NCBI GenBank assembly: GCA_949358305.1
Contig: OX442314.1
Coordinates: 17,546,001 to 17,610,000, forward strand
DNA from: Strigamia acuminata
Lineage: Eukaryota
Length of the DNA: 64,000 nucleotides
Direction of reading: 5' to 3'
How positions within the stretch are numbered: the stretch's first letter is position 1; each line of letters starts with the position of its first letter. The notes under the pieces were generated by a model. That model worked only from the letters and a program-made list of their open reading frames with translations, was not told the DNA's origin and made no database searches. This document shows positions 11,803-41,114 of the stretch, one piece after another. Both the position numbers and the translations under genes were made by a program.

Positions 11803-14800
11803 GGAACTGGAAATAAAGAAAGAAAGAAAGCAAAGTTTTAATGAGATAAAACACGCATTAGAGATACTCTTTCTTCTTAAAGATCGAGAAATCTCATCAT
11901 TTGCATGAGTGGCTCTTGAGGGGCCTGGAAGAAACGACTAGACATCTGCTTTTATTTTACGCCACATTTACTTTTTCTGGTTTACACCGAATGATTTAGA
12001 CAAAATATAACTGAACAGGGCATTTGATGACCTTCAAAACACATCTGAATGATAATAATAGTTCATCATATTGAATCGGGGATGAAATTACGCGTGTAAA
12101 ATTCACTAGGAGTAATTAGCATGCAACTGTAGAATCAAGAGTTATTGGTCTATAAATTGTCAGTGGAAACATTGGAAGTTTAACACATGCACGGTTACAT
12201 CAAAATAAATTTCACCAGCCACACACACGTACATACATTTAAAATTCAAGCGCTTTGCGGCAAATTTTCCATTTGCACAATTTCACCCCGGAGATGTAAT
12301 AAATGAAGTGAAAGAAAAGCGTGAAAGTAAATCCAACTTTTTATTTGCTGTACAAATAAATAGTCTTATATTCAAGCAGAAATTTGAAATACGTAATAAC
12401 CAAGTATCCAAACTAAAAGTGCAGTGCAGTGCAGTTATTTTAGCTTCGCTGCAGCACTTGACGCAAAAATGTAGATTTAAATGAAATGACTGTAAATTGA
12501 GATTTGAATTGAGTTCCAGCCGTCCGTGTGCCATTGATTCACAGCTTTATGCGTGAAAGTTATAAAGGGGGGGAGTGTTGGGGGATTGGGGGCTAAAATG
12601 ATTGACGGATTATAGTAAATTGAAACAGCTAAAGGAAATTTTTTCTTGCGAAATTTAATTAATTCACGCTCCATTAATCTAGTGTAATTTGATTAGAATA
12701 AATTCCAGCGAAAAGTTTGTTAATGAGCTTTTCATAAATGTTCTCTGGAGATTTTTGAAACATCAACAAACATCCATTATCGTGTTACAATTTTGAAATT
12801 CATTCATTGATGAATAATTTTTTTATAATGAGTAAACAGATGATGGGATGATAATTTTATTAAAATTTTATTTAAATTCTTACTAAATAAACACCAGCAG
12901 TTTGCAGGCTGTAATCGCGATGACTGATGCTTAATTCAAGCCTCAAACTACCCGTTCCTTCTTGAGCAAACATAAACAATAAATAATTAACAGCACAACG
13001 CGCTAATTGGCCTAGCAGGGTTGATAAGAGGGCTTACTCCTGTCTCTTCTGGCGCTAGGGATTAAACATTGTGTGTATTTGTGGAGTTTTTGTACTTCCT
13101 TTTCACTAAAAATGGGAATGGAAGTTTCATTACAATTTTTTTTCCCGTTGAAGAATGAAGATGATAATCTAGTGCAACTATTATAATACTATAAAAAAAT
13201 ATTACCACTGTTTGAGGTAAAATGTTTGTGTTTATTTTATCACCATTTATTTGCGTTGTATTTGAGTTGTTGTGAAAGTTTGTCAGATAACACTAGATTT
13301 GGAGAAAAGGACTCTGGAAACTGAGGTTGAGCAATTTGGCGCAGTTAGTTAGCAAAAGTTTGTCCTATAACTTCAAATCTGTACAAACATGTGCAATAGC
13401 CTGCACAGTTTCAAGCTAGTACCCAACCTTTGCCTAACGAGCCAATTTTGGTTTTTTGTATGCAGAAAAGAATGTTCAGTTTGAATTTGGCATCAAAATT
13501 CCGGACGCGGACTGTTGTCTGGAGTTTGGGGGCTCGTAACAACTTACAAATTAAACTTCTACGTGACTAAGAGGTAGGTTTAAAATTCAATTTTTGTTTT
13601 TTAAAATCACTAAAAGTTGCAGCAAAACAGTAGGCTGCTTTAATGCGGCTTTTGCTTTAGTTAACATTTTACTATTTTAGTCCGTACAAAAATTCGGTGA
13701 TTTTGTAAAATTTCGTATTGTAAGAAGCAATTCTTTTTTGTTTTAGCGAGGATTCTTTGAGGAAAACTTCGGATTTATTCGAATTTATGCTGAATTTTTA
13801 TTACTTTTTTATCAAAGGTTCATTTTCAAGAACTCCGAACGAACATTAACCGATCGTATCTGTCTCTGATGCCTTCTGCAACCAAGCAAACCACTCAGCA
13901 TACTTCATCCGGCGCTATCAGCGAACTAACCCCAACGGCCGAACCGAAAGAGTGCGGAAAAGAAGGATGTGAAATCAAACCGCCATTTTTTTTAAAGGTT
14001 TATTGGAAAACCATTTATTTTTGACATTAAATTGTAGTTTAGACCCTAATTAGTAATTAATCTATAAAAACATTTCAACCGTAAAGTTTTAGCAACTAAA
14101 AAACGATTATTTTTAATTCTAATTAGTTCATTTCCTGACATTTATTGACTAAAATGCTTTCCCGGAAATTAGGAACGAGTCTGTTTCGTATTCCAACTGA
14201 AACTAGTTGGTTTTCCATCCTGACTGAACCACTCGGCAATAACGTTTGCTTTTCTACCTTTACTAAAATAATGTGGTGATGGTGACGGTTGATTTGAACT
14301 AAACTAATTCATAATTCATATCAAATTCATTATATTTATCAGGCTGCACAGCTGGAATATTTTCCCAAAGATAAGCAATCGAAACGGACGGCTTTTTTAG
14401 TTCAGGGATCAATATTTTGGAATTACTCAACATTTCCTGCAAAAAGAAAAGAAAAAGAAAGAAAACCTGGAAGAAAAAAAATAGTGCTCACCAAGCAAAA
14501 GTCTGTCCTATCAGTGTAAAACACGACTTTGAATATTGTGAACACGCATGATCGCAACTCCAGTATTAACTGCCTGTATTGGTTGACTGCAGTTGCCACT
14601 TGATTTCATCAATTTATAGGCAACACGGAATCAAAATAGAATTCGAATTTGGACGAAGAAAAAAAAATGATGAGCAAAAATAAAAAAGAACTAAAACTTA
14701 AAAATGAGATATAAAAAAAAAAGTTTAGGCAATAAATCCTCATCCCATTACAGATTTACAACGCACCGCTGCGTCGTTGACTGGGCAAACTTTTCTGCTC

Positions 14801-17800: not shown

Positions 17801-17830
17801 TCAGTAAAACTGATATATAGTCTCTATATA

Positions 17831-19049
17831 CAGGGTGGAACAAAAGTCTGTTCCCCTCAAATATTTCCTGAGCAATTGCATCTAGGCCAACTTTGATGAA
17901 GCGATCGTATAGGAAGTTGGGTGAGAGCAATCCAATGATGTCATCAAATTTGACCTTGAAGGCCATTTTCAAGGTTATTCACTTGCTAACTTCTAAACCA
18001 ATCAGGTTAGAGCAAAAAAGTCAATTACAAAGTTGTAGAGCACCATCAAATTAGTACTATCCAACTTATCTTAGTCATCTTAAGTTAAATGTTTTCTTTT
18101 TAAAAAGGAGACAAATCAGAAAAAAAATCAGCAAAGTGAAATTTTTTAACCCTCGGAGGCATAAGGATAAAATGTGCCGTTCTGGTTTAAGCCATTATGG
18201 ATTTATGGACAATTTTTAAGTCAATTGGTTAAAGCGCCATTTAGTTTGTTTTTAGTTCGGAACTATTTTTATTGAGGACGTAATGCCTAAACAATAAAAA
18301 TAAATAGATTTGAGCCATCTGGAGGTGGTTTTAATCACTACTGGTAAATGCGAAAAGCTGTTCACTGAAGCGCTGTTTACAAATACAGCAAAGCCAGCTT
18401 AAAAGTTATGCTGGAGTTTTAAGAAGCAGAAAATTTTCAAGTTGAATATTTAATTAAATAAATGATGAATTATTACAAATTTCACCTGAGATTTACTTTG
18501 TTATCAGATGAACAAAGTCACAAATTTCAGCAAAAAAATTCATAGGAAAAAAAATTTTTCTATTCAAGAAAAAGCTTGTCCATAAATCCATATAGCCAAG
18601 GGTTAATCATGTGATAAAGTAATTATTGAGGCATTAAAAAAAGGCAGTGGTTTTTCTTGTTTACTTGCATAATGATGCACATTTGAATACGTTTATTTAA
18701 GTAATTCAGTATTTTTGTGATAGAAATTTAAGTTTTGTCACAATGGCTGGCTTTATTTCAGCTGATTTGTCTCCTTTTTAAAAGGAAAACATTTAACTTA
18801 AGATCACTAAAATAAGGAGGATAGTACTAATTTGATGGTGCTCTACAACTTTGTAATTGACTTTTTTGCTCTAACCTGATTGGTTTAGAAGTTAGCAAGT
18901 GAATAACCTTGAAAATGGCTGTCAAGGTCAAATTTGATGACATCATTGGATTGCTCTCACCCAACTTCCTATACAATCGCTTCATCAAAGTTGCCTAGAT
19001 GCAATTGCTCAGGAAATATTTGAGAGGAACAGACTTTTGTTCCACCCTG
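17831..19049. mobile_element. Non-autonomous Tc1/mariner-type element with ~290-bp terminal inverted repeats
   Basis: Ends are TA|CAGGGTGGAACAAAAGTCTG... and ...CAGACTTTTGTTCCACCCTG|TA. Near-identical TIRs at 17831-18119 and 18762-19049, TA target duplication, no transposase ORF. Confidence 0.9.
18150..18602. mobile_element. piggyBac-type MITE nested in the mariner-type element
   Basis: TTAA|CCCT...AGGG|TTAA ends and a subterminal inverted repeat TATGGATTTATGGACAA / TTGTCCATAAATCCATA. Confidence 0.65.
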
Positions 19050-22000
19050 TATATACTACTTTATAAATAAATACATAATTTAACGAAAAAAAGAAATACT
19101 TTCATTATAAATCTGCGTTTTGAAATGAAAATATAAAAATCATTTTTGGCAGGGCTTTCTGTACAATACTGGAAGTTATGTGTAAAAAAAATACAATAAA
19201 GCTTTCAAAGTGAAAATTTATACTTATAATCTGATGATACCACGTTTTGAAGTAAAAAATAAATAAATTCTAAACAAAAATTTATCCAGAAATATATTTT
19301 AACTCACAAACAGGCCATCAAGTGCTTAGAAATTTTACTAAAGTGTAATCCACACGTAATCCACAAGTTATTATCATAAATCATTTTTTAATGCAAATTG
19401 ATGTGCGAAAAAAATGTTTCTACGCACATAGCAACAGCCTATCAAATATCAATAATACTGAGTTTGTGTGCCGTAACTTGAAAACTGACCTCAATGTTTT
19501 TGTTTACACTTTCATCAAATGTTTTTCCTGATGATAATTAAAAAAATATATTAGTTGGCTGTGCAGAGTATCAGGCAGGATGGTTGGTTGTATTGTTGCC
19601 ATAGGAATGATTCATTCATTACTACAAATGGAAAATCAGGAAAAGGGCAACCCATTCAAATCTGAAATTTCATACGAATCGATGGTTTTTTCATCGCGCT
19701 ATTTCTTTTTTAATTAAATGTACTTGAAAAAAAATCCCAACTCAAAATCCTCTTATTTCCCAATTTCTTTTTTTTTTCTCAAAATCTCCGCACAATGTCG
19801 AGCTTCGCTGTTGAACAAAAGCAGCATTACAAGAGCTAAAACCCGAACTAAGTTTTATACGAAATAAAATGAAGATTTTGTCTTCACATAGAAAAATGGA
19901 ATAAAAAACTAAAGTGCAGTTCCAAAACTTGTTGAGGTTAATTTTTTCGTTCGTGATGTGACACACTCTTTCGACAAAGACGTTTTTGCAACGCCGTTAT
20001 TTCCGTTCCAATGATCAAAGACCACGTGATCTTATTTCCTGCGGCCAAAGGAAAGGGAATGGAAGGCAAGAGGAGACCTAAAAAAGTCCATTTCATTTAT
20101 TGGGACCTATTTTTCTGCAGTTGTAAACGTTGAAATGCACTAAAGTTCAAAATAAAAGAAATGGTGGCTTCAAATGATACTTGTTATAAACGAATAAAAA
20201 AAAAATAAAGAAAAACTTTTTGGAGTCAAATTATACATGATTTGACTTATTTTTGATTAATTAGTTGGAAAATCCTCATTGGAATAACAATAAACTCGAA
20301 TATTAACGAAGCATTTATTATTCCTATTTACTTTTAGGAAAATAAACAGTTCTTATTCTTATTCTTATTATTCGCTGTGTGTGTTTTCGGAATAAGTCAC
20401 GTTCGGTCGATGAACGAATATGATGTATATTATAAATCCGTCAACGAGAAAATGAGTTTTTTTTTTAAATCATTCTAATCTCACAATAGGCCAATAAATG
20501 GCGCCCGTTTAACGAAAGAAAAATTGCATTCGGGTAGATAAAAAACGAGCAGTAAATTTAGTTATGGCGCATCGTTAAATTTCAGTCAAAATAATTGAAC
20601 GTCAGCGTTAGAAACATTTTACGATTTTTATTGCAGCATTCTTTTAAGGAGTGCATTCTCCATGGCAAATGTCATTTATTCCATGTGGCAGGTCAACTTC
20701 ACATCTGTTACAACAAATGCTGTGCAAAAACTTCTCAAATTAGAATTTTAAATTTTCGTGTCTGCATGATTCACTAAACTTTTCTAACCAATATGTAAAT
20801 TAATAATAAAAAATAATAATTTAAAATAATATTTTTTTTTTACTTTTTCAATAAACGATGGAAACGTGTCTGTCGCAAGTTTAAACCTAATTTTAAAATG
20901 AAAAAATGTCCTTATCCGAGTTTTATATTAAATAAACTTTTATTTTTATGCATGAGTTGGTAGCTAAAACTCTTCATACCATCAGGGGTTAAAACATGGC
21001 ACTTGGAAACAAAATTAATGAATAAGTATATGCGCCTGTCCAACTTTCTAACCTTTTCAGCATTTATTAAGTTAACCCTTTAATCTCCTTGCTAAGTTTA
21101 AAACGAAGAAACTACACTTAGTTTACTAGAGTCATTTCGCCCACCCGCGTATAAAACGGACCTGTAATACGGTTGGAAAGAGAATTTTATGAGCCACAAC
21201 TTGTTATCGCTACCCTTTCTTTCAATGGACAGGGAATTCTTTTCTCAAAGTGACAGGAAAGGTGGAGTGTGGAATTTCGGTCCTGGTGCTAAATGTTATT
21301 ACAGCGTAATAACATGCAACCGCTACAACCAAGTAGAACTAAAAAAGTAAAACGCCTAAGAATGTTTCTTCAAGTACAATGTGATTAATTTGCTAAAATG
21401 AATGCGGTCAGAACTAATTATGGCTTCACACTTCGCTTTCTTTCAATTTGTAAAAAAAAAAAAAAAAAAAAAAAGCTGCGCAACAAAATTAATGAGAAAA
21501 GTAATGAAAAGAAAACACTTTTTCCTAGCAATTTTTTATTATTATTGAAGACTAAAGTAACATGTTTTAATGGTTTTTTCAGATTAAGTCATACATAACG
21601 TCAGATGAATATTTGGCTGTTGACTTATTTCAAGAATTTGTAATAAAAAAATTGTTTGAATAACTCAAATAACTTACGTAACACTTGACAATCGATTGGG
21701 CAATCGAAATTGCAAGGATTTTCAACTAGATTTAGCTAAATTTTAAAATCTTTGTCAAAATGTTTGTAGATATTTTTTAAATTGATTTATGTAAAAACAA
21801 TTATGTTCATTTGCATTCGATCGAAGGAATGTGGGTGTTAGAGATTGTTTCTAACACAAAAATATTGAATTATTGGGTACTTTATTTTGTTTTTCCTCTA
21901 AAATAATTCTTTACTTCTCTCCGTCTTTGCATTTATCGGAAAGTTGGCAGATATTGAACGCACTGTATCAGAATGCATTGATCGGATGCGTACCGAAGCA

Positions 22001-23904: not shown

Positions 23905-24432
23905 AGTTTATAACGCTGTCGTTACAAACAATGCATGTGTTGAACACGCACTCGCAGGTTCGCGGATATTTCTTCAAAACGAATGACCTTCAACGTGGGT
24001 GTCGGTCATTTAGAAATCTCCAATTCCGTTGAAATTTATTGCGACTCGATTCGTGTTATCGAAATGTGTTTAGGACGAAATAAATCGACTAAATCCAGAT
24101 AATTCGGTAGCTCAAATGGGGGCTTCGAATGTCACCGGGTGGATAAAAAGGTGGGAGTTAGAACGAGCACGGTTAGAAAATTAGATGCGAAAATAAAGTT
24201 GACTTGTGGTCCAAATTGTAGTTGGTCGCGAAGTGTCGGAATATCGACACGTCGCGATATTTATAACAATCGGTCAGCTGATCGATTGATCAGCTGATCG
24301 ATTGTCACATGACCCAAATTAACAAATGAGGTTAAAATGAAAACCGCGACAAGGTCGCGCGCATAAATTAAGAATGAGAACAGGTGAGGAATAAAATTGA
24401 AATTTAGGAATTGGGAAAGCTCACCCGTGACA
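23905..24432 (-). repeat. 3' LTR (528 bp)
   Basis: Identical by eye to 35887-36414. Element sense reads TGTCACGGG...GTTATAAACT, with TATAAAT at ~24259-24265 and AATAAA at 24035-24040. Confidence 0.97.
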
Positions 24433-24445
24433 TCCTCCGCCACCC
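24433..24445 (-). promoter_or_regulatory. Polypurine tract (plus-strand primer)
   Basis: Purine-rich GGGTGGCGGAGGA immediately 5' of the 3' LTR. Confidence 0.85.
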
Positions 24446-25310: not shown

Positions 25311-28115
25311 TTATGCCACCATTTCTTGATGAAGTTCTCGAGCATACAGGCGTTGTTCCGGATCTGAGTAATGTTTTACCAAATCGAACGCCACGTCAAT
25401 GATGATTAATCGGGCCCGGGCCACATTTGCGGCCCCTCGACGATTGATTTCCTGTAGACATAAATCAATAAATGCATCGCGAAAGTACGTGTCCATCAGG
25501 TCGATAATTTCCTCAGTTTCAGGAAGGGTCAGGTTTAAATCTGACAGTGCCAGGGACCGGAAAAGAGCACTCTGCGTGTGATAAGGGATCATCAACTTCG
25601 TGCATCTGGTGGGCTGGAAGGTAAAATCACATATAATGTTCATTGATGGGATGATAGTATTTGACATGAGGATCGTTATCTCTGGTTTCTCCTTAGAGCC
25701 TGGAACAGAAATGAGGTCCTTCAACGACTTATCAGTAGGTGTGGGTGCCATGTATCGCGAAGAAACCGCTAATTTCGACATCTCCTGCACCTGAATTTCT
25801 CGAACTCTTTTCTCTTCATCGATCCTCTTTTGAAGTTCTTTTCTCTCCTTTTCTTCCCTTTCCTTCCTGACTTTCTCCTTCTTTTCAAATTCGATATTCT
25901 CTGCAGCTACTTTGGCCGCCTCTTTCTTCTGGCTCTCCTGGACGGCATATCGTTTTTTCTCCCGTTCGACCGCAAATTTCTTGACATATTTACCCATTAT
26001 TAAATGCGTCTCCCATACCAGCACAGCGAAAAATCGATCTTCATCCATGTGGATCTCTTGGTCCATTCGACTTTCGACATTGGCAGCGATGTTCTTTAGT
26101 TCTTTAAAAGTCGCATTTTTGACGGGGTAAACGTCATATTGATTTATGTCGAAATCTCGGGTGGCCATCACGTTGAATAATTCCCTCCAGCCCCTCGGCT
26201 CCAACTCCATACGAGAATTACTGATGGTAGTATTCCTCCTAAGTACCTGCAGTTCGAATGGTTCGAGGATGTCTCGAATGTAATGAAGCGTAAAAACGGG
26301 GCAATTTGAAACTCCGTAATGGTCCGTTTGTGTATAATGGGGCGGACGAGAGACAACCTTGGTGGTTTTGGTGGTCGAGAGAACGCCATCTTGTGATGAT
26401 CCGCGAGTTGAATCGGTTTGAGACGTGGATATGGAGGTAGTCCCAGTACTAAGACTTGCAATGGTGTTGGTGACGGAAATCGTCGTCTTCGTCGGTAAAT
26501 CAGTCGTCCTTATTGGAATTTGACTTTTAAAAGGTGTCGGCACTCTCTTGACAGAATGCTCGGTAGAACGCGCATCAGCTTTGGATTCTTCCTTCAGTTC
26601 TTCCTTCTCTTGATCTAATCGCGAATTGTCAATGTTTGGTACAATTTTTACCTTTAATTCCTGATCGGTTGCCTGAGGTGACACATTTAGGAATCTTATG
26701 TCCCGGTTCCGGTCCATGTAGTCGTCCAATCGGCGTTGTGACGGGTCTGGGACCGATTTTAACGTTGGGACGGGTTTGATCGGTTGTGGAAAGTTCTTCA
26801 TTAGCGTTAGAATTCCCGGCTGTGCTGGTTGCATTCTATCAGGGCTAATTTCAGGCGAGTTATCAATTGGTTTGGGTGGAATTTTCTCCAAAGTCGCGAT
26901 TTCATCCTTCTTGACCGGTGTAGTTGGTTGCACTGACTGTACAGGCTTCGGAGCGTAGCGGACTCCTGGAGCGGATTGGGCATCTCGCGAACGGTCTCTT
27001 GGCAACGTTGTGCCACCCATCATTATGGCTTGGGCGACGTGGCCACCGCTCTCCTTGTAGCGCACGGCGAAGTCTTCGTTTCCTTTTGGAACGTATAATA
27101 GTGGTTCAGGCATCGGTTGCAAACGTGCTTCGGCCGTCAGTAGATCGATTTCACGATTTAAATCCTCGATCCAAAGTCTCGCCTGTTCAGTCGTGGCGTT
27201 TGTACCCAGGAATGCAGGCAAAGTTTTGATCATCCCGGAGAACTGCAGGTCTGTGAGATACTGCTCCCTCGCATAATCAGTCAAATTTGCGATTTCCTCG
27301 TTCGTCATCCTGGGGACCGCCTCATGTTGGCACCTGATCGCGTTTCCCATCGCGTAGATCCATCGGCGGGGTGCTATACCGCGTTCCTCGGCCAGTTGCT
27401 GGACTCTGGCCCAGTACCAATAATGGGTAAAACGAAACCTCAAAATCGCGGCGATGCTTCCTTGTACAATTCGCGTCGGCGGCAGGACCCACTCATAAAT
27501 GCGCACTCCGTCTGCGTACTTGAAACGGAGGACCCAATTGAAATAGATCCGCATCCATTCCCTGAACTTGCACCGGCGCAATTCGCCTGCGCCCCCGCAT
27601 GCTCGGCACACAATTTCTTTGACTGGCGGCGTTGTCTCAACTCCCCATCCTGAACAAATACAGCAGACTTCAAAATTTGGGAAAGATTGTTCGAGCGGTT
27701 CGTCTGGGTGAAAGTGCGGATATATCCACTCTCCCTTAGCATGAATGGGTGGAATGGGCAGGTTTTTTGGATATTTGAGTTTCTTTTGTGGGTCGCCATT
27801 TTGGTGTTTACTATTTGACATGATGGTGGTAATTCGCGAATAAATAAAACGAAATGCTATAATTGATAGCACAAAATACGGCACGCGATAAACTACATAA
27901 TAGACAACACGGAATGTTCGCGAGATCAATCGCGTGTTGTAAACTAAGTACCGGCATGTACGGAATAAAAGATGCATGGCCTTAGAGGCTAGCTCTCTAG
28001 GATTGGTCAGTTTAAAGAATGCTGAGTAATCATATCTGTTTCCAGGCGCAAACCAATAAGTTATTCCCCCAAAAGGTTTAATTCTTGACCAAATTTCTTT
28101 AAAAATAATACGCAT
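25311..28115 (-). CDS. Retrotransposon ORF3, 934 aa, unknown function (not recognisably Env); DnaJ-type zinc-finger motifs, S/T/P-rich linker, coiled coil
   Basis: Uninterrupted 2.8-kb ORF in the env position. Contains CCICSGWG...CRACGGAG at aa151-177 and a KE-rich helix at ~aa715-785. An alternative start is possible at Met99 (27821). Confidence 0.85.
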   Translation of the reverse strand: MRIIFKEIWSRIKPFGGITYWFAPGNRYDYSAFFKLTNPRELASKAMHLLFRTCRYLVYNTRLISRTFRVVYYVVYRVPYFVLSIIAFRFIYSRITTIMSNSKHQNGDPQKKLKYPKNLPIPPIHAKGEWIYPHFHPDEPLEQSFPNFEVCCICSGWGVETTPPVKEIVCRACGGAGELRRCKFREWMRIYFNWVLRFKYADGVRIYEWVLPPTRIVQGSIAAILRFRFTHYWYWARVQQLAEERGIAPRRWIYAMGNAIRCQHEAVPRMTNEEIANLTDYAREQYLTDLQFSGMIKTLPAFLGTNATTEQARLWIEDLNREIDLLTAEARLQPMPEPLLYVPKGNEDFAVRYKESGGHVAQAIMMGGTTLPRDRSRDAQSAPGVRYAPKPVQSVQPTTPVKKDEIATLEKIPPKPIDNSPEISPDRMQPAQPGILTLMKNFPQPIKPVPTLKSVPDPSQRRLDDYMDRNRDIRFLNVSPQATDQELKVKIVPNIDNSRLDQEKEELKEESKADARSTEHSVKRVPTPFKSQIPIRTTDLPTKTTISVTNTIASLSTGTTSISTSQTDSTRGSSQDGVLSTTKTTKVVSRPPHYTQTDHYGVSNCPVFTLHYIRDILEPFELQVLRRNTTISNSRMELEPRGWRELFNVMATRDFDINQYDVYPVKNATFKELKNIAANVESRMDQEIHMDEDRFFAVLVWETHLIMGKYVKKFAVEREKKRYAVQESQKKEAAKVAAENIEFEKKEKVRKEREEKERKELQKRIDEEKRVREIQVQEMSKLAVSSRYMAPTPTDKSLKDLISVPGSKEKPEITILMSNTIIPSMNIICDFTFQPTRCTKLMIPYHTQSALFRSLALSDLNLTLPETEEIIDLMDTYFRDAFIDLCLQEINRRGAANVARARLIIIDVAFDLVKHYSDPEQRLYARELHQEMVA

Positions 28116-28485
28116 AGTTTAAATTATAAAATAAAAAATAATAATAAATTCATTTGATTATTAAAATTAAGCTTCGCGACATTTCATTCGTCTATTAATT
28201 GCATGTGCCCCGTGCGAGGCTAAACCAATAACGTCACCTAGTGACAAAAATGATAACCATAAACCTCAGAGTAGATAGTTTAACTTTTATCAATACCACA
28301 ATGCAACACAAAAAACGACAAACATTGTACGAAACATTAAGTTAGTTAATGAACGGAAACGAACACAAATAAACGAAGACAAATGAACGAAACAAAACGG
28401 AATCAACGAAACTTTAGACACATAAATAAAAATTTCAATTAACAGAAATTACAAAACCCAAATTAAAATCCGCATGGCTACATTC

Positions 28486-28486
<1 letters not shown>

Positions 28487-28522
<36 letters not shown>
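28487..28522 (-). repeat. Internal A36 tract overlapping the pol stop codon
   Basis: 36 T on the + strand; the AA of the pol TAA stop begins the run. Confidence 0.9.
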
Positions 28523-28527
<5 letters not shown>

Positions 28528-31500
28528 TTAGATGCAATCACATGAGCGGAAAAAATGTCAAAAGTTGTTAAAATGAATTTTTCGACATGTAAGTCGATTA
28601 AATTAATTTCTTCGATATTTGGTGCTTCCGCATCATCAAAATGCCAATGTCTTAATTCGATTACATTATATGGGGGTGATTTTCTCCCCTCATTGTCCAT
28701 TAATATTACAGTGTTCGGACCAACTAATCTGTGGATAATATGAATTCCCTCAGTTCGTTGTCGCAATCCAGCGGCAAATTGGCGATCGGCAGATGATTGC
28801 TGGCGATTTTTTAAAGTTACCCAATCACCTGGTTTGAAATCATGAGGCCTTCTGCCACGATCAAACCATCGTTTGTGCCTGATTTTTGCAGCTTGCAAAT
28901 TCGCCGCTGCTTGTGAACGTAAGGTTCGCATGTATTCGTGTAAATTCTCCGCCTCTGACGGCGGCAAAGGTTCACCATCGTCCGAATCGCTGTCCAAGTC
29001 CCCCGGAAATCTGGCCTCTTGGCCAGTAACCATTTTAAAGGGCGAGAATTTTAACGACACTTGATATGCGGAATTTATCGCGAGTACAAAATATCCGATG
29101 TGTATGTCCCATCTTGAATGATCATCAATGTAGGCCAGGATGCAGTTTTTTAGCGACTGATTTAATCTTTCTGCCAAATTGCTCTGCGGATGATACACCG
29201 CTGTGTACCTGTTCACTGCTCCTAATTGTTGGCATTGATTTTGGAATTCGGGGGATCGAAATGTTGGTGCGTTGTCACTTATTATGACCTTCGGGAACCC
29301 CCATCTTTTACAGAATTTGACAATTTGTCTAACAGTAGTGGGAATATTCGCGTTTTCAGTGAGTCTTACGTCCAGCCACCTGCTTGCAGCATCCACCATC
29401 ACGAATGCATAGCAGTTTCCACCTGTCGAGCGGGGCTTTTTGCCATAATAATCGATATAAATGGCCGAAAATAAATGTCTTGGTTTAGACATCAGCAATT
29501 TGCCATATGGCAATCGGTTTAAAGGTTTTGCTCGCTGACATGCGTCACAAACCAATACCCATGTTTGCACATCTTCGCGCATTTTCGGCCAAAAAACTCT
29601 TGATTTGAGTCTTTGCAGGGTTTTTTCTATTCCCATGTGCCCTCCGATCGGTGGATAATGCAGCGCTCGAAAATAACGTTCGCGAAGTTCAACGGTCGGC
29701 AAATAAATTTGACGCCGTTTGCGAAACTTATTTATGTCAACAGGGGGAAAACGACACAACAAACCTTTTGACATGCCAAAATCATTGCAATTGTGCAAAA
29801 TAAAATTGGCACGTTCCGGTTCATCTGGGAGCGTGTGCAAAGTCAAGTATTCTATCAATTCCCGTGAGTCTTGGTCAATTTGTTGCGCTGCGATGATTTC
29901 TGCTGCGCTGGGTAGGACTACGAATGCTGGATGGTCCACTGGTGGGTCGTGGTCCAACTCCGCCTGTCTCTCCAATTCGTTTGGTGGTTCGTCACCCTCA
30001 TCCTCATCATAATTCCTTCGCGGTCTACGTCGTGGTCTCGGAGTTCTTCTCTGAGTTAATGACGGACGAAAATAAATTGTTTCGGGCGTTTGCGTGCCCA
30101 AATTCGGCCCGTAACTCTCGTCTGATGATGATTCGGAGCTGTCCGACGTCGCGAAGGAAGGTTCGGGTCTGTAACCCGATGGTCCGGCTTGTGGCTCTTC
30201 TGGTTCTACAAAAGGCTTGGAAAATGGATGAGGACTTATGGGTGAAGGAATAGGAGAGATTGGTGGTGAAGGTGTATAAATTGGGGTAGGAGTTGGTTTC
30301 AAAATTGGTTTAGGTTTTCCAATTGGTATTGGAATACCAGACTGTTTTTTACGTGGTCTGCCAACTCGACGTTTTGATGGCACCTCTTCAGGTGGCAGCA
30401 CAGGTGCCGTAGGTTTTCGTAACCTTGGTGACGGCACAATTGGTTCCGGAATTCCTGTCTTACGCTTTTTTAGACGTCCTGGCACTCGTTTCGGAACTAT
30501 TTCCTCTGGTACCGTTGGTAGAACTGGAAGTTCATCATCAGGAAGCGGAGGTGTTGGCGGCGTAACAATTATTTGTGGTGGTTGTGGCACCCCAATTGGT
30601 GGAATTTGAGGCGGCACAATTAATTGTTTTTTAGGCCTACCAACTTGCCTTTTCACCATTGTTGGTGGAATTAAACGCCGTGTTTTTGGTGACGTATCCA
30701 CACCGACTGGATCCGCAGCTTTCCTTTTTCTAGGCCGACCCACAGGACGCTTTCCAATTGGTGGCGTCGGTGGAGGTGGTGTTGGAGGAACCAGTGTTGG
30801 ATCCTGAATTCGTGCTCTTGTTCTGGTTGAAATTGCACGACGGGATCGCGGTGAAAATGTTGGGACTGTTGGGTCCTTTTTGGGTCGTCCCACTGGTCGT
30901 TTTAATGGTACCACATGTTTTGGCGACATCTTCTTTTTCTTTTTTGATTTAGTTGGCGTCAAAGCTAAAATAGAATAATTTCTATTATTACGAAAATTAT
31001 TTTTTGACTTACAGTACGCGAATTGGGGTTCATCAATTAGGTCTTCGATTACTCTTAACTCTGGCCAATCTGAAATGTCGTCAAAAAATGCAAGATAGCA
31101 TGCTTCATCTACAAGAGGACTATCATCTTCCTCCTCTTCTTCTGCAGGATCGACAGGTGCGCGGCTTAGTGCATCTGCGACACGATTTTTACATCCAGAA
31201 ATGTAGATGAATGTAAAACGATATTCACTTAGGGATAAAACCCATCTTGCCAGTCTACCTCGTGGTTCGCGCTGTTGAAAAAGCCATTTCAATGACATGT
31301 GGTCACTTTCCAAATAGAAGTCCATCATTTCAAGGTAGGGTCTAAATCTTTTAACCGCCCAGACAGCCGCAAGACACTCAATTTCAGTCACTGGATAATT
31401 TTTTTCGGCGCTATTTAATGCTCGCGATGCAAATGCGACTGGATAACGATTTCCTTCATTATCAATTTGCATTAAAGCAGCCCCAAGACCTGAATAACTT

Positions 31501-33803
31501 GCGTCAGTCTGCAGGATGAATGGTTTTTTCCAATTTGGGAAATTACGTTTTAAAGTTGGTTCTGCAACAAATTGTTTTAAATGTTCAAACGCATGTTGGT
31601 GAGCGTCAGTCCAAACCCAAGTGCAATCCTTTTTAAGAAGAGGGCGGAAAACTTCACAAATTTTTGCAAAATTTGGAATAAAAGTTTGGTAGTAGCCCAC
31701 CATTCCCTTAAATCTCTGCAGTTCGCGTAAGTTGATTGGTGCAGGATAACTTTGGATTGCAGTCACCTTTTTTGGATTTGGAGTAATTTGGCCCGCCTCG
31801 ACGATATGGCCCAGAACCTCCAAGCGCCGACGACACAGTTCTGTTTTGTCTGCATTCATTGTAAATCCTGCATCGTATAATTCACCAAGCACAATTTTTA
31901 AATGTTCAACATGTTCTTCATATGTCTTGCTGAAAACGATCACATCATCCAAATATACAAACACAAACTTATACAGGTGTTTCGCGAGAGTCTTGTTCAT
32001 CGCGCGTTGTAACGTTGCCGGTCCATTAATGGGCCCAAAGGGCATTCTCACGTACTCAAAGAGTCCACGGTGAGTTATAAATGCCAAATATCTTTCATCG
32101 CCTTTTCTGACTCCGAGTTGATGAAAAGCTTCGCGACCATCAATTATTGAAAACCAATGGGCTCCACCAAGGTACGCGAAAATGTTGTCAATGTCAGGTA
32201 ATGGATATACGTCAGGGACCGTTTGAGTGTTAATTGGGCGAAAATCCATTGCAGTTCGCCAATCGCCCGTTTTTTTGGGCACTACGACCGGCGCAACTGC
32301 ACAATCACTCATTGAACGCCTAATTATCCCCTGTTTTAATTTTTGATCAATGTACTTATCAATTATTAGTTTCTTGGCTGGATTCACTGGCCGCACTGGA
32401 ACATGGACGGGTCGAAATCCTGGCTTCAAGTTGACCTCGAACTCGGTATTGTTGCAGAGTCCGACTTCCTCTCGAAAAACATTCGCAACTGGTTGTAAAG
32501 TTTTGATGAGAAGTTGGATTTGTGGAACCGTCAGTTGATTCCAGAGCTGATGATAGATCCAATCCAGACATGTTGGGTCTTCATTTGGCTGATAAGATAA
32601 AAAATTACATTGATTAATATGTTCGATACTGTCACCTTCATCCTTAATCTTCTGCTTTTCAGCTTCTTTGAGAATATCTTCTTTCAAAAGTCGCGATGCT
32701 TGTTGATTCAATTGTTGAACAATTGGTTTAACTTTAGCAATACGTTTGGATTGTCGTTTCCAACGTTGAACTTGGCTGAATGATGGTTTTATCTGAAAAC
32801 TAGAAACTCTACGCGAAAAAGAAGTTGATCTTTCTTGCCGTTTAGGCGACCAAATATTTGACCACTCATTAGAATCGCGATGTTTGATCTTTTTAACACG
32901 AAATTGTGCATCATCGTTTGGATATTCAAACACTTCTCGTGCGAGTGGGCGATGGTCAAGCAGAACACAATTGATTTTAGATGTAGGGGCAGGTAATATC
33001 GCTAATTTGGGTTCATTGCTATATTTTCTATCAATTGGTAACAACAAAACTGGTTCTGATCGTGATGCTTCGTCAATTGTCAAAAACTTACGTCGTTCTT
33101 CAGATCCCTCTAAATACCATTCTTGTCGACCATGCAACGTGCAGAGGCCTACTGCACGGCAAAAGTCGCGTCCCAAAAGCAGATCTTGAGATGTTTCGGG
33201 AACAACAAGACAGACAAATTTAATAATTGCGCGGGGTCCTCTAACTGCAAGTTGTACAGAGCCTGTCACTTTGACAGTGTCGTTCGTGGCAGTTCTGACA
33301 AATTCATTTAACGGCATCATTTGCAGTTCCATCTTGTCTTTTAATTGATTAAAAAGTTTGTCCGACATTATGCAGGTTTGTGCTCCAGAATCGAAAATCG
33401 CGATGAAAGAGACGTCTGACCACGCAATTCTTACACATGGTGCATCTGCCTTAAATCTATCGCGTTTAGTAATTTCAATTATGGGTTCCTGCGTTTTAAA
33501 TAACTCCGCGGGTGATAACATCACAAATTTCGCGTCCACTTGGTTGATCGAGCCATGCGGAGGCAAAGTCGCGGTGCTAACTCTGGAAATAGTATTAATA
33601 AATTCATTAGTGATGATCTTACTTACCACTTTGTCCTTATTTTCAGGTTGAAGAATTGTCAACTTGGGTTTTTCCGGTTGCAGTGTGATGATAGGTGATT
33701 TTGGAATAACAGAAGTTGATTTCTCTTGAAGTTTAAGCTCCTGGGGAGCGATTGATGAATTGTTTTGAATTAAAGTTTTATGAGTAGCGCTTGCACTCGT
33801 CAA
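28521..33803 (-). CDS. pol: Pol polyprotein (protease, RT, RNase H, AT-hook-like insert, integrase); translated by -1 frameshift from gag, with the frame open up to ~33930
   Basis: Protease IFDSGAQ; RT MPFG and YLDD; RNase H QTDASYSGLGA...ADALSR; integrase H-x6-H...CDAC with D (IYID), D (SDNA) and E (AERLN). Confidence 0.96.
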
Positions 33804-33862
33804 TGTTGGCGCTGGTGATTGTGTTGTACTTTCTCGTGTTTCTGCACAGTTTTCGGGTAAGT

Positions 33863-33932
33863 CGGGGCAATTGGTGTTTACTTTTGGCCTGGCTTTGTTG
33901 CCCCGCTTCCTGGCAGGCCTTGGAAGTTTTCC
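33863..33932 (-). promoter_or_regulatory. -1 ribosomal frameshift signal (G_GAA_AAC + H-type pseudoknot)
   Basis: Heptamer at 33932-33926, 6-nt spacer, stem 1 GGCCUG/CAGGCC, stem 2 CGGGGCAA/UUGCCCCG. The -1 frame runs without a stop into pol. Confidence 0.85.
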
Positions 33933-35782
33933 GACCGCTCGAAGAGTTTATGACAGATTAGGCAAAATGGACGCCATGTGTCATTTTCGACCATATACCA
34001 GCGGTTCTTCTTGGTTCGGCGCCAAGTTGTGTGATCTGGGCGCTTGACCGATTCCGGTGGCGATGGCGTTGGATCGAAAGTGGTAACGCGAGTCGAGCAA
34101 ACATGATCCTTTGGAACGTTTGACGGAACTTCAAGTTTTGTCGTCGCGATTTTAACTTCATTTTTCGCGGCCGCCGTCTTCGTTTCCGTTTTGACAGCTG
34201 CTGCTGCCACATCCTGTTTGATTTCCTCTGGGTCATATCCACTACTTTCCGACTCCTCATCTGCTCCATACGGGCGAGGAACTTCCGGCTGGCCTTCCAT
34301 TGCTAGCAGAACCGCCGCAATTTGTTTGGAAAGCTGCTGTCGCGAAAACTGTCCAGATCTAGAAAAAGTAGAAAATTTGGGCTTCTCCACCTTAGCTTCT
34401 TCCACGGGCTTCAGCATCGTAGGAATAGTATACTCCTTAGGAAGGGGCATAAAGGCCTGATCTACTATTCCACTTTGCTTAAATTCGAGCGATCGCAGTG
34501 AATCAAGTTGCAACCTATTGTCCACATCATTTCCGACTCGAATCGCCTTTTCAAGACTATTTACTCCCCAATTTCGCATCAATAATACTACCTGCGTTTG
34601 CAGCATATTTTGGGCCTTTTCCCACCTTAGTGTTCTTTCTTTATAGCCTGCAATTTGCAAATAATGAGCAATTTCACTCAAAAATGCAGTTGTAGACTCG
34701 CCCGGTCTTTGCTTGCGTTGGCTCAATTTAGCATTCGCTGCGGCCGTATTCATTGAATATGTTTGTCGGAAAAGTACTTCAAACTCTTTCCAAGTCTTGG
34801 GTTTAAGTTTCATAGTCGTCCACCAAGTCAACGCGCGACCCTTTAAAGCAGTGGCTGCATAAGCCTTTAAATAATCGCGCTCCGGAGCTCCCACCTGCCA
34901 CATGTGTGAAAAAAGCTCTGCCAAAAATGAATTCACTGTATCAAAGTCTGTCTTGTCCGGATTAAAATGCGGAATTTTTTCCACTTTCCATTTTCGACGA
35001 CCAGCCACGTCATCCGAATCAGGTAAAGATGGGAGCGACAACTGTTCTTTAGTTGCTGGCTCTGGCTTCGGATACTTCATTTTTGAATACAAAATTGATG
35101 ACATTACCTCTTCATTAACTTTAGACGCGTCATCGCGCGCACTTTGAAGCGATGGTGGGCTTTTAGCATGTTCACGTGGAAGTCCTTGATTTCTGTCTAT
35201 GCCCGCTCGTGGATGGCTTGTCGACGCGGATCGATGTCGTGGCTCTGTGTTCGCTTGATGACGCGATGCTGTTGCCGCTCGAGTCCTGCCCGTGGAGGGC
35301 TCTGCAAATAATGAAGACGTCTTCCTCCCACTCGTCTGTTGGCCACGGGTTGCCGAATATCCCTCTGAATGTACGGACCCAGGAGAACGCGAAGCGGGCT
35401 GAGTTAGAATGCTTTCCCTGCAGTCCCTTAAAAACTGTTGGAATTCGGTACGCAGACCGGCAAAAAATGATGCTTGAGGATTTGTTTGACCCCCTTGACC
35501 AATTGGTGGTGTCGACGAAACGCTAACTGTTTCAGTCGGCGACACTCGCGACGTTGTTGTGTATACAACCATTGGTTGCACCCTTGCGCTTGCTGTACTT
35601 GCGACAGTTGTCAAAATGTCGGTTGAAAATGTCACCAACGGTGAAGTTGTAACATTTACAACCGTCGTCGCTCGCGCTTGCCTTCTGTTGTCGCGCATTT
35701 CCTCCAATAATTCCAACTCGTTTATGTCAAAAGGGTTCAGAGCTGGATATTGAATACCATTACCTTCTAACGGCGACGCCAT
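33878..35782 (-). CDS. gag: Gag (capsid-like retrotransposon gag domain)
   Basis: 634 aa, first ORF after the PBS. LKGRALTWW...W.EF...F...Y...RKQRPGES...F motif. No complete CCHC knuckle. Confidence 0.92.
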   Translation of the reverse strand: MASPLEGNGIQYPALNPFDINELELLEEMRDNRRQARATTVVNVTTSPLVTFSTDILTTVASTASARVQPMVVYTTTSRVSPTETVSVSSTPPIGQGGQTNPQASFFAGLRTEFQQFLRDCRESILTQPASRSPGSVHSEGYSATRGQQTSGRKTSSLFAEPSTGRTRAATASRHQANTEPRHRSASTSHPRAGIDRNQGLPREHAKSPPSLQSARDDASKVNEEVMSSILYSKMKYPKPEPATKEQLSLPSLPDSDDVAGRRKWKVEKIPHFNPDKTDFDTVNSFLAELFSHMWQVGAPERDYLKAYAATALKGRALTWWTTMKLKPKTWKEFEVLFRQTYSMNTAAANAKLSQRKQRPGESTTAFLSEIAHYLQIAGYKERTLRWEKAQNMLQTQVVLLMRNWGVNSLEKAIRVGNDVDNRLQLDSLRSLEFKQSGIVDQAFMPLPKEYTIPTMLKPVEEAKVEKPKFSTFSRSGQFSRQQLSKQIAAVLLAMEGQPEVPRPYGADEESESSGYDPEEIKQDVAAAAVKTETKTAAAKNEVKIATTKLEVPSNVPKDHVCSTRVTTFDPTPSPPESVKRPDHTTWRRTKKNRWYMVENDTWRPFCLICHKLFERSENFQGLPGSGATKPGQK

Positions 35783-35868: not shown

Positions 35869-35886
35869 ATCCTGTCTAGCTCGCCA
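35869..35886 (-). promoter_or_regulatory. Primer-binding site, probably for tRNA-Arg(ACG)
   Basis: TGGCGAGCTAGACAGGA directly abuts the 5' LTR. It resembles the complement of an animal tRNA-Arg(ACG) 3' end (TGGCGAGCCAGCCAGGA) with 2 differences. Confidence 0.75.
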
Positions 35887-36414
35887 AGTTTATAACGCTG
35901 TCGTTACAAACAATGCATGTGTTGAACACGCACTCGCAGGTTCGCGGATATTTCTTCAAAACGAATGACCTTCAACGTGGGTGTCGGTCATTTAGAAATC
36001 TCCAATTCCGTTGAAATTTATTGCGACTCGATTCGTGTTATCGAAATGTGTTTAGGACGAAATAAATCGACTAAATCCAGATAATTCGGTAGCTCAAATG
36101 GGGGCTTCGAATGTCACCGGGTGGATAAAAAGGTGGGAGTTAGAACGAGCACGGTTAGAAAATTAGATGCGAAAATAAAGTTGACTTGTGGTCCAAATTG
36201 TAGTTGGTCGCGAAGTGTCGGAATATCGACACGTCGCGATATTTATAACAATCGGTCAGCTGATCGATTGATCAGCTGATCGATTGTCACATGACCCAAA
36301 TTAACAAATGAGGTTAAAATGAAAACCGCGACAAGGTCGCGCGCATAAATTAAGAATGAGAACAGGTGAGGAATAAAATTGAAATTTAGGAATTGGGAAA
36401 GCTCACCCGTGACA
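35887..36414 (-). repeat. 5' LTR (528 bp)
   Basis: Direct repeat of 23905-24432. Confidence 0.97.
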
Positions 36415-37186: not shown

Positions 37187-40100
37187 TTTTTTTTTTATTA
37201 TTATTGTTTATTTTCCAAAAGAAGGGTGCCCCCCAACAGCCGAAGCCTACAGGGGGGGGACACCCATCAAACCACCTAAACAACCATCGTCAATTACAAA
37301 AACAAAAAGAGATCAAAAAAAAAAAAAATCATAATTCAAAATAGAACATCAAAAGAAACACAACAGCAAAAACAAAAAAACAAAATTAAAATTACATTAA
37401 ATTAGCATCAAGACCCAACAACAAAAGCATGCTCAATACCAGAGAGAGTACAATTAAAAATGTCAATATCACCCAAAAAGACATTAACGCTCCGTAATAA
37501 ACGCCCAACAGGGGAGTAAGAGTTAGAAACAGAGAAAGTAACACGTGGGGTGCGCAACTCCCTCCCCACCCAAGGAACATTAAAGTGCAAGCAAGATAAC
37601 AGACAGGGAGCCACGACCTTGCCACTGATCAAACGAAAAACGAAAATGCAGTCAAGAAGAATCATATGGGAACCAACAGAACGCAAACCCAAAGCCACGA
37701 GCACCTCCGAATAAGAATAATTAAATAGGTGATAAAAAAATCTCCTATAAATCATCCAAGCAAAATTACGTTGCAGCCCCTCGAGACGGTTAAGCAGATA
37801 GACAGCACAGCCCCTCCAAACCAAAGACGAAAACAAAATACGAGAACGAACCAAAGAAATAAACAACAAGCGAAGCGGACCCGGAGACGTAAAAACAAAA
37901 GAGAGACGGAAGAGAATGCCCAAAACCCTCGTACACTCACCGACCAATCGATTAACATGATTTCTAAAGATAAAACAATCATCGAAAGTCACACCCAGAT
38001 CCCTTATCACCGAACGTCGTGGAATCAAAACACCACCCAACGTGTAGGGATGCAAAAGCTTCACAGCACGACGGGAGAAAGAAAGCACTACTGACTTGTT
38101 GACATTTAGGCTCATGCAGTTTGCATCAGTCCAACATTGTACTCTATTCAAATAACGCTGCAGATCCTCGCAATCCCCAACAGTATCAATGCTGCGGCCC
38201 AACTTGGTATCATCCGCAAAGAACGAGTGGGACAGACCACGAAGAAAGTAGGATAAATCGTTGATAAACAGCTTGAACAACACAGGACCCAGAATAGAAC
38301 CCTGTGGGACACCAGAATTAGTCACGTAACAACTTGACGTAGTAACCCCATTACACTTAAGAAAGTTATTCCTCCGACCTAAATAACTAGCAAACCACTT
38401 AATAAAACGCGGGGACAAACCGTAAAACTCCAGCTTGATCAACAGTAGATCGTGGCAAATTCGATCAAAAGCCTTCGCGAAATCCAAGTAGATGACATCA
38501 AATTGGCCCCTGGTATGAAAAGAGTCGAATACCTCATTATAAAAATTCAGGAGATTCAGCTCCACAGACTTCCCACATGTAAAACCAAACTGGGCATCCG
38601 TAGTAAATCCATCTACCCACGAGCTCATCCTGGCAAGCACAGATAGTTCAAATAACTTAGCCAAACTACTCAATAAAGAGATAGGTCTAAAATTGGATAC
38701 GCTGGTGCGCTTACCGCTCTTGAAAACAGGGACCACCAACGCATCCTTCCAAGCAACCGGAAAAACCCCGCAAGAAAGCGACAGATTGAACAAATAAACC
38801 AGAGGAACCAATAACACCTCAATACATCCCTTAAGGATGAACGGCGGAAACCCGTCCAAACCACAGGCACCATGCGATCGGAGCTTCACCGATGCCGCTC
38901 GAACATCAATTCCAGACAAAGCCGGAATGTCCAGACGATCGGCAACAAAAGAATCACTGGAGCTTTTAATCCCCATCTCAGAGTCCAGATACTCATTTAC
39001 CGCAGCAGTATTGTGATAGCCCGATACAATCGACCCAAAATGATGACAAAAGAGTCTTCCCAAATCCGCGGACTCAGCGGTCAAAACCCCTCCATCGTCC
39101 AGGACAATGTCCGAATGGGCAGCACGATACCTGGGCTTTACAAATCGCCAAAAGTTCCTAGGATTATAGCGGACAGAATCCGCAATCACCCCAAAGTACG
39201 CCTCACGATCCCTCCTCATCTGAACCTTAGCACCCCTGCGACACTCCGCAAATCTAAGATAGTCACATCCACGACCATAACGCTTGAATTTCCGATGAAA
39301 AACACGCTTGTCCCTCAATAAAACCCTTAAGTCAAAGGAGAACCACGGGGGAAACTTAGAATCCATTCGAACCCTACGCGGAATATAACGACGAACCGCC
39401 TCCGCAAGAACGTCAGACAACATCCCAACCCCAACATTAACATCAGAGCAGCTGAGAACACAAGACCAATCATAGCCCGCCAAAAAAGTATATAGAGAAT
39501 GATAATCCCCAGCTCTAAAGCAAAGATAGTCACCTCTCGCAGCAGGGACACCAACAATAGACAGGCGAAACGCCAAAGGCGGATGATAATTGTCGGGAGA
39601 AACCAAGCAAGCATCAGCAAGAGAAACACACAGGTCGGAACAGTTCGAAAAAATCAAATCCAACAAATCGCCATGACAATTCAAAACTCGGTTAAATTGA
39701 GAGACCCCCACAAAACAAGAAAATTCATTTAAGGAAAGGGCCGAGGCTCGAACCACCGACAAGGCACGCCCAAGATCAAATGGAATCCAAGAAATCCCCG
39801 GAAGATTAAAATCTCCAAGCAGAATAACATCCCCAGAAAAGGACGCCACGGACTCACGACACCGGTCCAAGCAGGCCTGCAGAACCAGAGTCGGAGTACG
39901 AGGAGGAATGTAACAACACCCAACCAAAATCCGTCTAGATCCACAACCCAACTCGACCCATAAGCTAAGATCACCATACTCCAAATCAAAACGACGATAG
40001 GAGTTAATCGTGGAATTAACAGCACATAACAACCCACCACCACGGGTGAGGCCGGAATTAATGTCGCGATCATTACGGAAAACCTTAAATTGACTAGTGA

Positions 40101-40203: not shown

Positions 40204-41114
40204 CTACAAAATCTCGACTCGACTCAAGCGGGCTTACTGTAATCCCTCGGCGACATGCAATTCAAGCCACAAGGATGTAAATACTTGTAGATAGAAATAC
40301 TTTCATGTTAAAACAGACTAAAACCAAGAATCTATGTTTACATCTCACGTTTGAATTCACACAAAAATGAAATATTTATACATATTTATACACATTTTTT
40401 GGCTGTTATTAAATTTTCTATTTATTATTTTTAAATCGGGCAAATTTCTTGGAAAATTGTTGTTGTTGTAATGGCTTGTCCGAATTAATTATCATCAGAA
40501 ATTGTATTGATTTTTGTATTAATTTATGTAGAGAACTTTGTTGGTGCAATAAATGTTTGATGAATCTTTAAAAATTCTCTGCAAACAAAGTCGTATTCAT
40601 CACAAAAAGGTTCTTTCAATTGCATTCGCACATCTGCTTTAAAACTAAATGATTTAAACACATTTTCTTTTGTGAACTAGAAGGAAACGAAATGGGAAAT
40701 TGTCCAATGTGCACACTTGTGTTAACCCAGATGTCATTGTAATTTTTATCTGTGGGTTTCAATTCACCCAACATCTTTCAAGCAAATTCTTTCTTGGTTT
40801 TTGTGGCAGTGGGGCGCACAATAAATAAATCAATTATCACGTCTACGTATTTTCAAAGGCAAAACATAGGACCAAAAATAAAATAACTAACACAAACAGG
40901 CTTTATATTTTCAGCATGTTACCTTCTGCTATCGCCATTTTTAATTTTTTCACGAGAAAATGACAAAATTACTCAAAAGTCCACATCGTCTGCATTTGTT
41001 TTTAAATAATTCCACTATTTTGCCGCTAGGGTATCGATGAGCATGCGCAAAATGGTAGCAAGTTGCGCTTCTGTTTCTTCTGTGGCCCGTACTCGTTAGG
41101 AAAAATAGATTAAG

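Follow-up and report, generated by a model that had tools for sequence, protein, structure and literature searches.

A Ty3/gypsy retrotransposon of Strigamia acuminata with a non-Env third gene and sister copies that carry a probable intron

We describe here the third gene of a Ty3/gypsy retrotransposon of 12.5 kb, which lies on the minus strand of a 64,000-nucleotide stretch of the Strigamia acuminata genome (GenBank assembly GCA_949358305.1, contig OX442314.1, positions 17,546,001 to 17,610,000; hereafter the window). The gene, open reading frame 3 (ORF3), stands between pol and the 3′ long terminal repeat (LTR). A preliminary description, made from the letters of the window, had picked it out as an intact frame of 934 amino acids (aa) between apparently identical LTRs, with two CxxCxGxG repeats and no Env hallmark. 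These observations hold: the frame is free of stops, and the LTRs (35887-36414 and 23905-24432) are 100% identical across 528 nucleotides (nt). In sister copies, the gene is broken by an insert that is most simply read as a spliceosomal intron, and the contiguous 934-aa frame is a property of the window copy.

ORF3 and its sister copies

The layout of ORF3 is given below in the order of the protein; sister A is a diverged copy treated further on.

25311..28115, minus strand: ORF3, 934 aa, stop-free and intronless in the window copy
27844..28115, minus strand: predicted exon 1, aa 1-91, with a basic amphipathic helix and then a hydrophobic segment (aa 70-92)
27843..27844, minus strand: predicted junction of exons 1 and 2, in phase 2 of codon 91, where the sisters have their GT-AG insert
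27693..27716, minus strand: His/Asp/Glu-rich block, aa 134-141, with eight consecutive silent codon changes in sister A
27585..27665, minus strand: paired CxxCxGxG, predicted single C4 zinc site
27111..27575, minus strand: Trp/Tyr/Arg-rich region, aa 181-335, predicted helical (low-confidence model)
26346..27110, minus strand: P/S/T-rich linker, aa 336-590
25956..26345, minus strand: second globular-looking region, aa 591-720 (low-confidence model and composition)
25761..25955, minus strand: KE-rich long helix or coiled coil, aa 721-785, the sole part with pLDDT >70
25314..25760, minus strand: C-terminal helical region, aa 786-934 (low-confidence model)
28238..28256, minus strand: acceptor-like site, by pattern match only, that could serve a subgenomic ORF3 mRNA

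The repeats lie at C151-G158 (27665-27642) and C170-G177 (27608-27585). None of 200,000 shuffles of the protein contained two such motifs, and 40 contained one. Five of the 12 cysteines of ORF3 are in the finger and none in aa 336-590. Behind the finger, aa 181-265 have a net charge of +9, with 13 Arg and 17 aromatic residues; a K-K-x-K resembling a nuclear localization signal (NLS) stands at aa 111. The block at aa 134-141 includes an HPD tripeptide and a His-x-His, possibly a second metal site or an interaction motif beside the finger. At the N-terminus, aa 59-72 form a strongly amphipathic basic helix that is followed by the most hydrophobic 19-mer of ORF3 (starting at aa 70, Kyte-Doolittle 1.75; best C-terminal value, 1.37). 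No furin site (R-x-K/R-R) occurs in the 934 aa and no strong hydrophobic segment near the C-terminus, which supports the earlier view of a non-Env third gene. Ten ATGs precede Met1 after the pol stop, which argues for a subgenomic ORF3 mRNA.

Sister copies were read from contigs of two DNA runs (X1 and X2) of one study, in which about 0.89 of the sampled words of the element are present. The summed contig depth over ORF3 in X1 is about 1,900-2,400, versus 188 for a unique flank contig; this excess of about 10× hints at several copies, contig depth being no direct measure of copy number. All nine contig records over 27582-27958 (five in X1 and four in X2), those otherwise identical to the window copy included, break at 27843/27844. 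On the sense strand, the letters beyond the break open with a GTRAG-class GT donor and close with a pyrimidine run and YAG. One record rejoins exon 1 after 76 letters. Sister B, about 83% identical to the window copy, has 197 letters between 27728 and 27844 versus 115 in the window, an excess of 82. The insert site is in phase 2 of codon 91, and the window copy is free of the insert to the base. GT..AG ends occur in 26 of the 12,434 segments of 76 nt in the element, and the stricter GTRAG..YAG ends in none. Four host introns nearby are of the GT-AG type, with lengths of 55-70 nt.

Both insert lengths, 76 and 82, are of the form 3n+1, so unspliced RNA cannot yield the 934-aa product, and splicing out the insert joins the Met1 exon in frame. 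The simplest reading of these sequences is a spliceosomal intron that is ancestral to sisters about 17% apart. ORF3 then most likely has two exons and is read from Met1; the window copy was most likely templated by an intronless spliced RNA or converted from such a cDNA. Exact intron loss would be an indirect sign of germline transcription, splicing, and use of Met1. Between Met1 and Met99, which the preliminary description had left as alternative starts, the balance leans to Met1: in addition to the in-frame join, the alignment of one sister starts at the A of Met1 and runs gap-free over 272 nt with 85% identity, and the 412 nt upstream of Met1 in the same contig are unaligned. A frameshift of a sister between aa 91 and 130 had also been considered and was abandoned after the splice-type ends appeared.

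The match of diverged sisters to ORF3 falls into separate blocks (aa 1-91, 130-218, 518-538, and 573 onward), so that the globular parts align and the linker at aa 412-517 and 539-572 is left unaligned. Sister A differs from the window copy at 40 positions over 27582-27843; 32 of these are listed, and the other 8 presumably lie near the alignment ends. The listed differences fall 2, 2, and 28 times on codon positions 1, 2, and 3 (p 3e-10), with 25 silent and 4 changed codons (Fisher p 3e-20). Over aa 102-168, pN is 0.028 and pS is 0.67, for a dN/dS of about 0.017 with dS near saturation. C154 and G156 of the first repeat have silent codon changes; the second repeat falls outside the callable stretch of sister A. 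The three changed codons seen in exon 1 of sister B (V70L, V71I, and V75A) stay hydrophobic. Judged by these substitutions, ORF3 is under strong purifying selection, as expected of the maintained accessory gene first proposed, a proposal that had named a dN/dS near 1 as the sign to the contrary. Sister A is nearly identical to the window copy just past the junction (27753-27843) and about 20% divergent after that, a pattern that may reflect subfamily recombination or RNA-level constraint near the 3′ splice site.

Some of these data weigh against the two-exon reading and the selection argument. The 76-nt bridge has 19 letters on one side, under the bridging rule of 31 letters, and main-family contigs reveal just 9-14 letters of each intron end. 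The joined, intronless form is absent from the contigs of both runs; contigs drop rare variants, and the window copy also has private substitutions that are absent from every contig. Sister A looks mosaic near the junction, with 3 of the 32 differences in aa 102-121, and so is possibly no independent witness. In exon 1 of sister B, 7 of 21 differences are shown, and the 4 of these at third positions are not significant (p 0.17).

Database searches support, at the sequence level, an ORF3 with no known relative, family, or fold match. Pfam returned no family for the whole of ORF3, and parts gave only weak rows under the cut-offs. Word-index searches returned no homologue among 7,496 candidates for the full length and none among 395 for aa 105-340 against shorter proteins, and a HMMER scan of 1.84 billion representatives returned none either. 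No ORF3 relative turned up in the 23 viral stretches or the 101 metagenome stretches. Among PDB sequences, the coiled coil alone was matched (E 0.006); the ESM Atlas gave nothing usable for aa 99-360 or aa 590-934; and the only profile match to the finger was phrog_9961, a phage family of unknown function (E 8e-4). Single-sequence AlphaFold2 models of ORF3 parts had mean pLDDT values of 37.6 and 43.5. With these models, Foldseek gave no match at E 0.001 (MIT-domain rows at E >1 were discarded), and VIA-align gave a best Z of 3.9, with none at ≥5 among 48,161 chains. Given such poor models, the null fold searches are uninformative and provide no evidence for a new fold. A gag-capsid-like stretch at aa 297-325 was rejected when comparison with the element's own gag gave no support.

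CxxCxGxG is the consensus of the cysteine-rich domain of DnaJ/Hsp40, which has four repeats. ORF3 has two and is without a J domain or a Pfam match to DnaJ, so that "DnaJ-type", as first used, holds for the motif and one predicted zinc site only. DnaJ/Hsp40 was also rejected as a candidate on the HPD at aa 136-138, which is in a Pro-rich context, with no Pfam J-domain match at E up to 10.

The element, its lineage, and its surroundings

The element has the gag, pol, LTRs, primer binding site (PBS), and polypurine tract of a Ty3/gypsy retrotransposon, with pol encoding protease (PR), reverse transcriptase (RT), RNase H (RH), and integrase (INT).

35887..36414, minus strand: 5′ LTR, 528 nt, same sequence as the 3′ LTR
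35875..35886, minus strand: PBS, 10/12 match to the 3′ end of tRNA-Arg(ACG), directly adjoining the 5′ LTR
33878..35782, minus strand: gag (Retrotrans_gag, E 3.5e-6, Pfam)
28521..33947, minus strand: pol, PR-RT-RNase H-INT, in −1 frame overlap with gag
29958..30992, minus strand: Pro/Arg/Lys-rich insert in the RNase H-integrase interval, containing four AT-hook-like motifs (GRP) and a further, degenerate one
24433..24445, minus strand: polypurine tract, directly before the 3′ LTR
23905..24432, minus strand: 3′ LTR

The PBS was compared with the tRNA-Arg(ACG) 12-mer of supplement 1 of PMC13524379. No tRNA gene was found within the 64-kb window. No perfect target-site duplication of 4-6 nt was found at the element ends, the best being 3/4 by eye. 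The ends at 23905 and 36414 thus combine identical LTRs with the lack of a clean duplication, and the identity of the 3′ LTR reaches the PBS-adjacent base, which looks like an unprocessed right end or noncanonical termini. A run of 36 A (28487..28522, sense strand) starts inside the pol stop codon; it could either be a genomic A-run or have been left by template switching that joined a polyadenylated gag-pol RNA to ORF3 RNA.

Ty3 RT is the best solved-structure relative of the element's RT (E 2e-83). The RT-RNase H region has a best identity of 44% among the 120 matches listed and forms a long branch in a 13-member group with a support of 0.975, in a 120-sequence tree built without named lineage references. 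These results support a divergent Gypsy lineage, in line with the possibly undescribed lineage suggested earlier. An RT search across viral contigs gave no match. In a metagenome RT search with the alignment of the 13-member group, 80 of 576 loci were kept, all generic and with 32-40% identity; the best ORF3 match in these 80 loci had an E of 0.48, and the paired CxxCxGxG is absent from their 481,692 nt. The integrase tail presumably resembles those of Osvaldo-type elements; neither the PBS nor the LTR size supports membership. The Osvaldo lineage was rejected on these two features, since the element has an Arg(ACG)-type PBS and LTRs of 528 nt, whereas that lineage is primed by tRNA-Lys and its LTRs measure about 1-2 kb (PMC3286476).

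The Pol insert spans pol aa 986-1330, approximately, and is 23% Pro. Against the AT-hook profile PF02178 it scores an E of 0.011, which misses the curated cut-off. The distance from the RNase H end motif to the H2C2 motif of the integrase is about 500 aa here versus a median of 121, taken from the 72 proteins in which both motifs were found out of 121 (120 homologues and the element's Pol); among the same 72, only one protein, an apparent multicopy polyprotein, has a longer interval. Sister contigs align into part of the insert. It possibly tethers integration to AT-rich DNA.

Elsewhere in the window, the following were noted:

37408-40203, minus strand: intact 930-aa ORF of a non-LTR retrotransposon, with endonuclease and RT, about 1 kb from the 5′ LTR
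17825-19055: 1.2-kb stretch flanked by terminal inverted repeats of about 295 nt, 97-98% complementary, likely a nonautonomous DNA transposon
41000-43500 and 47700-49800: small intron-rich gene in two tandem copies, synaptobrevin/VAMP-like
10804-11937, minus strand: 377-aa single-exon stretch, seven-helix-receptor-like by eye

Proposed function of ORF3

By analogy, ORF3 may encode a regulator of unspliced genomic RNA like CERV or Rev, a reading that we prefer tentatively and to which we give somewhat less than an even chance. CERV is encoded in the env position of Cer1, a Ty3/gypsy element of Caenorhabditis elegans, and is made from a spliced mRNA; export of unspliced genomic RNA depends on CERV and on the cysteines of its candidate C4 finger (PMC10309623). 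Packaging of spliced RNA should purge a sense-strand intron, so persistence of the intron needs a route that favors unspliced genomic RNA. It is this support from the intron, together with the published analogue, that singles out RNA export among the functions proposed. In the suggested loop, default splicing would make the ORF3 protein, whose C4 finger and the basic, aromatic helices behind it would bind element RNA; the coiled coil would oligomerize the protein, which would then route unspliced RNA to export and packaging. Such a loop would explain how a sense-strand intron survived repeated reverse transcription, with the window copy as a leak.

The main objection comes from exon 1, with its basic amphipathic helix and marginal transmembrane (TM) segment: the hydrophobic segment at aa 70-88 has a favorable membrane score and suits an anchor more than a soluble nuclear protein. 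ORF3 has no recognizable RNA-binding domain, its patterns resembling an NLS or a nuclear export signal are of loose and common kinds, and its likeness to CERV lies in placement, splicing, and the C4 site.

The same exon suggests a membrane-anchored scaffold, which we regard as possible though rather unlikely. It would consist of an N-terminal anchor, a zinc-binding and helical head, a flexible linker, and a coiled coil, and would tether or move capsids for assembly sites or for Env-independent cell-to-cell spread, the intron acting as a switch that gives either a short membrane peptide of exon 1 or the long anchored form. The sequence of helix and hydrophobic segment fits such a protein, as do the hydrophobic replacements in the segment and an exon 1 kept gap-free from Met1 onward; sORF2 of the MDG1 group, a small membrane protein with a role in Env-independent spread, is a loose precedent (PMC11952523). 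Against it, the TM helix is marginal, with Arg77 and Arg89 inside, there is no Gly2 myristoylation site, and basic residues precede the segment. A scaffold alone would also leave the retention of the intron by genomic RNA unexplained.

Less probable still is a role against silencing or in transactivation, with ORF3 binding the DNA or chromatin of the element or acting against piRNA or siRNA silencing. A zinc finger with basic helices generally suits nucleic-acid binding, the family is young, intact, and apparently multicopy, and plant DNA transposons encode sequence-specific anti-silencing proteins, the VANC proteins. The very low dN/dS of the finger region is, however, unlike that of a host arms-race interface, and ORF3 has a hydrophobic N-terminus and no domain match.

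We consider it improbable that ORF3 was anciently captured from a host or virus, intron included, and now has another part in replication, enzymatic or structural. The GT-AG intron is of host size, the GC content at third codon positions is above that of pol (0.49 versus 0.35), and bdelloid elements have taken up enzymes as ORF3 (PMC5408684), but neither the 1.84 billion representatives nor the word-index searches held a homologue, no Pfam family was reached at the curated cut-off, and no catalytic motif was recognized in ORF3. Very unlikely are a chance deletion or assembly effect behind the 76-nt absence, for which the lack of a joined form in the contigs and of the window's own reads among the data might speak, and a decayed env, given the splice-consensus ends with an in-frame join (0 of 12,434 segments by the stricter pattern), the loss of rare variants and of the window copy's private substitutions from the contigs, the introns retained by host genes of the window, and the absence of any Env hallmark in ORF3.

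Taken together, the regulatory role preferred here, the anchor, and the Pol insert can be combined into an undescribed Gypsy lineage with a retrovirus-like splicing circuit in its third gene. In it, a persistent sense-strand intron would decide whether a small membrane peptide is made or a large zinc-finger protein, membrane-anchored and of a new family. This protein would link a membrane site to the export of unspliced genomic RNA, and Pol, with its several AT-hooks, would tether integration to AT-rich DNA. In this full form the proposal is unlikely, less so than the factor against silencing and more so than the scaffold.

Comparison with known systems

Non-Env ORFs in the env slot are already described, namely CERV (PMC10309623), the ORF3s of bdelloid rotifers (PMC5408684), and those of plants (PMC7264820). 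New here are the ORF3 protein, a sense-strand intron together with a young copy in processed form, and the multi-AT-hook-like Pol insert. A literature search, mostly of open-access sources, found no gypsy ORF3 with CxxCxGxG, no sense ORF3 with and without an intron in different copies, and no AT-hook array in a gypsy Pol, a topic on which only a review of retroviruses came up.

ORF3 is like CERV in being a non-Env ORF of orphan sequence located after pol and before the 3′ LTR, in the several structured domains on linkers with a candidate C4 finger, and in being the product of a spliced mRNA, to which, for ORF3, the intron-bearing sisters and the exact intronless copy point. Its C4-type loop, the first repeat of which is kept in sister A, has a spacing unlike that of CERV. 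CERV has 517 aa, shares its N-terminal exons with gag, and is nuclear, whereas ORF3 has 934 aa, a finger of the CxxCxGxG type, a probable small intron inside the gene, and a first exon of its own that includes a hydrophobic segment (PMC10309623). The ORF3s of the bdelloid elements Juno and Vesta are likewise family-specific non-fusogens in the env slot; they are recognizable enzymes (DEDDy and GDSL) or short TM/coiled-coil ORFs, in contrast to the ORF3 described here, which has no recognizable domain (PMC5408684).

The sORF2 elements of the Drosophila MDG1 group are likewise Arg-primed and without Env (PMC11952523; for Arg priming of the Mdg1 lineage, PMC3286476), and exon 1 alone would be a basic hydrophobic peptide of about 90 aa, comparable to sORF2. 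sORF2, however, stands alone as a short protein translated from unspliced RNA, its basic patch follows the TM segment, and Gly2 myristoylation is frequent, whereas the segment of ORF3 lies downstream of pol and is predicted to be spliced to an 840-aa body (PMC11952523). An sORF2 or FAST fusogen was rejected as a candidate, residue 2 of ORF3 being Arg and the basic helix preceding the hydrophobic segment. The F-type and HSV/gB-type Env proteins of errantiviruses share the post-pol position and probable subgenomic expression with ORF3, which differs in having no layout of signal peptide, ectodomain, and C-terminal TM segment, no furin site, and no family match (PMC13524379). The F-type was rejected for want of a furin site with fusion peptide and of a C-terminal TM segment after a Cys-bridged ectodomain; for the five-domain class III fold of the HSV/gB type there was no Pfam match, and the ORF3 models are too poor for fold comparison.

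The extra ORFs of gypsy elements in plants and fungi also lie after pol and before the 3′ LTR and are sometimes spliced, mostly of unknown function, and often antisense; an antisense intron stays in genomic RNA, whereas that of ORF3 can be purged by reverse transcription because it is on the sense strand, as apparently happened in the window copy (PMC7264820). An intact ORF3 in one copy may accordingly be a processed form, and ORF finders would split the gene of other copies. For the export of intron-containing genomic RNA by LTR retrotransposons without Rev, CERV is the one well-studied answer from an animal in the literature consulted (PMC10309623). ORF3, a new 934-aa protein family to characterize, is an apparently unrelated second protein in the slot of CERV, under very strong selection, and the genome records both RNA fates, its intron-bearing copies and a young intronless copy forming a natural pair for the study of sense-intron retention.

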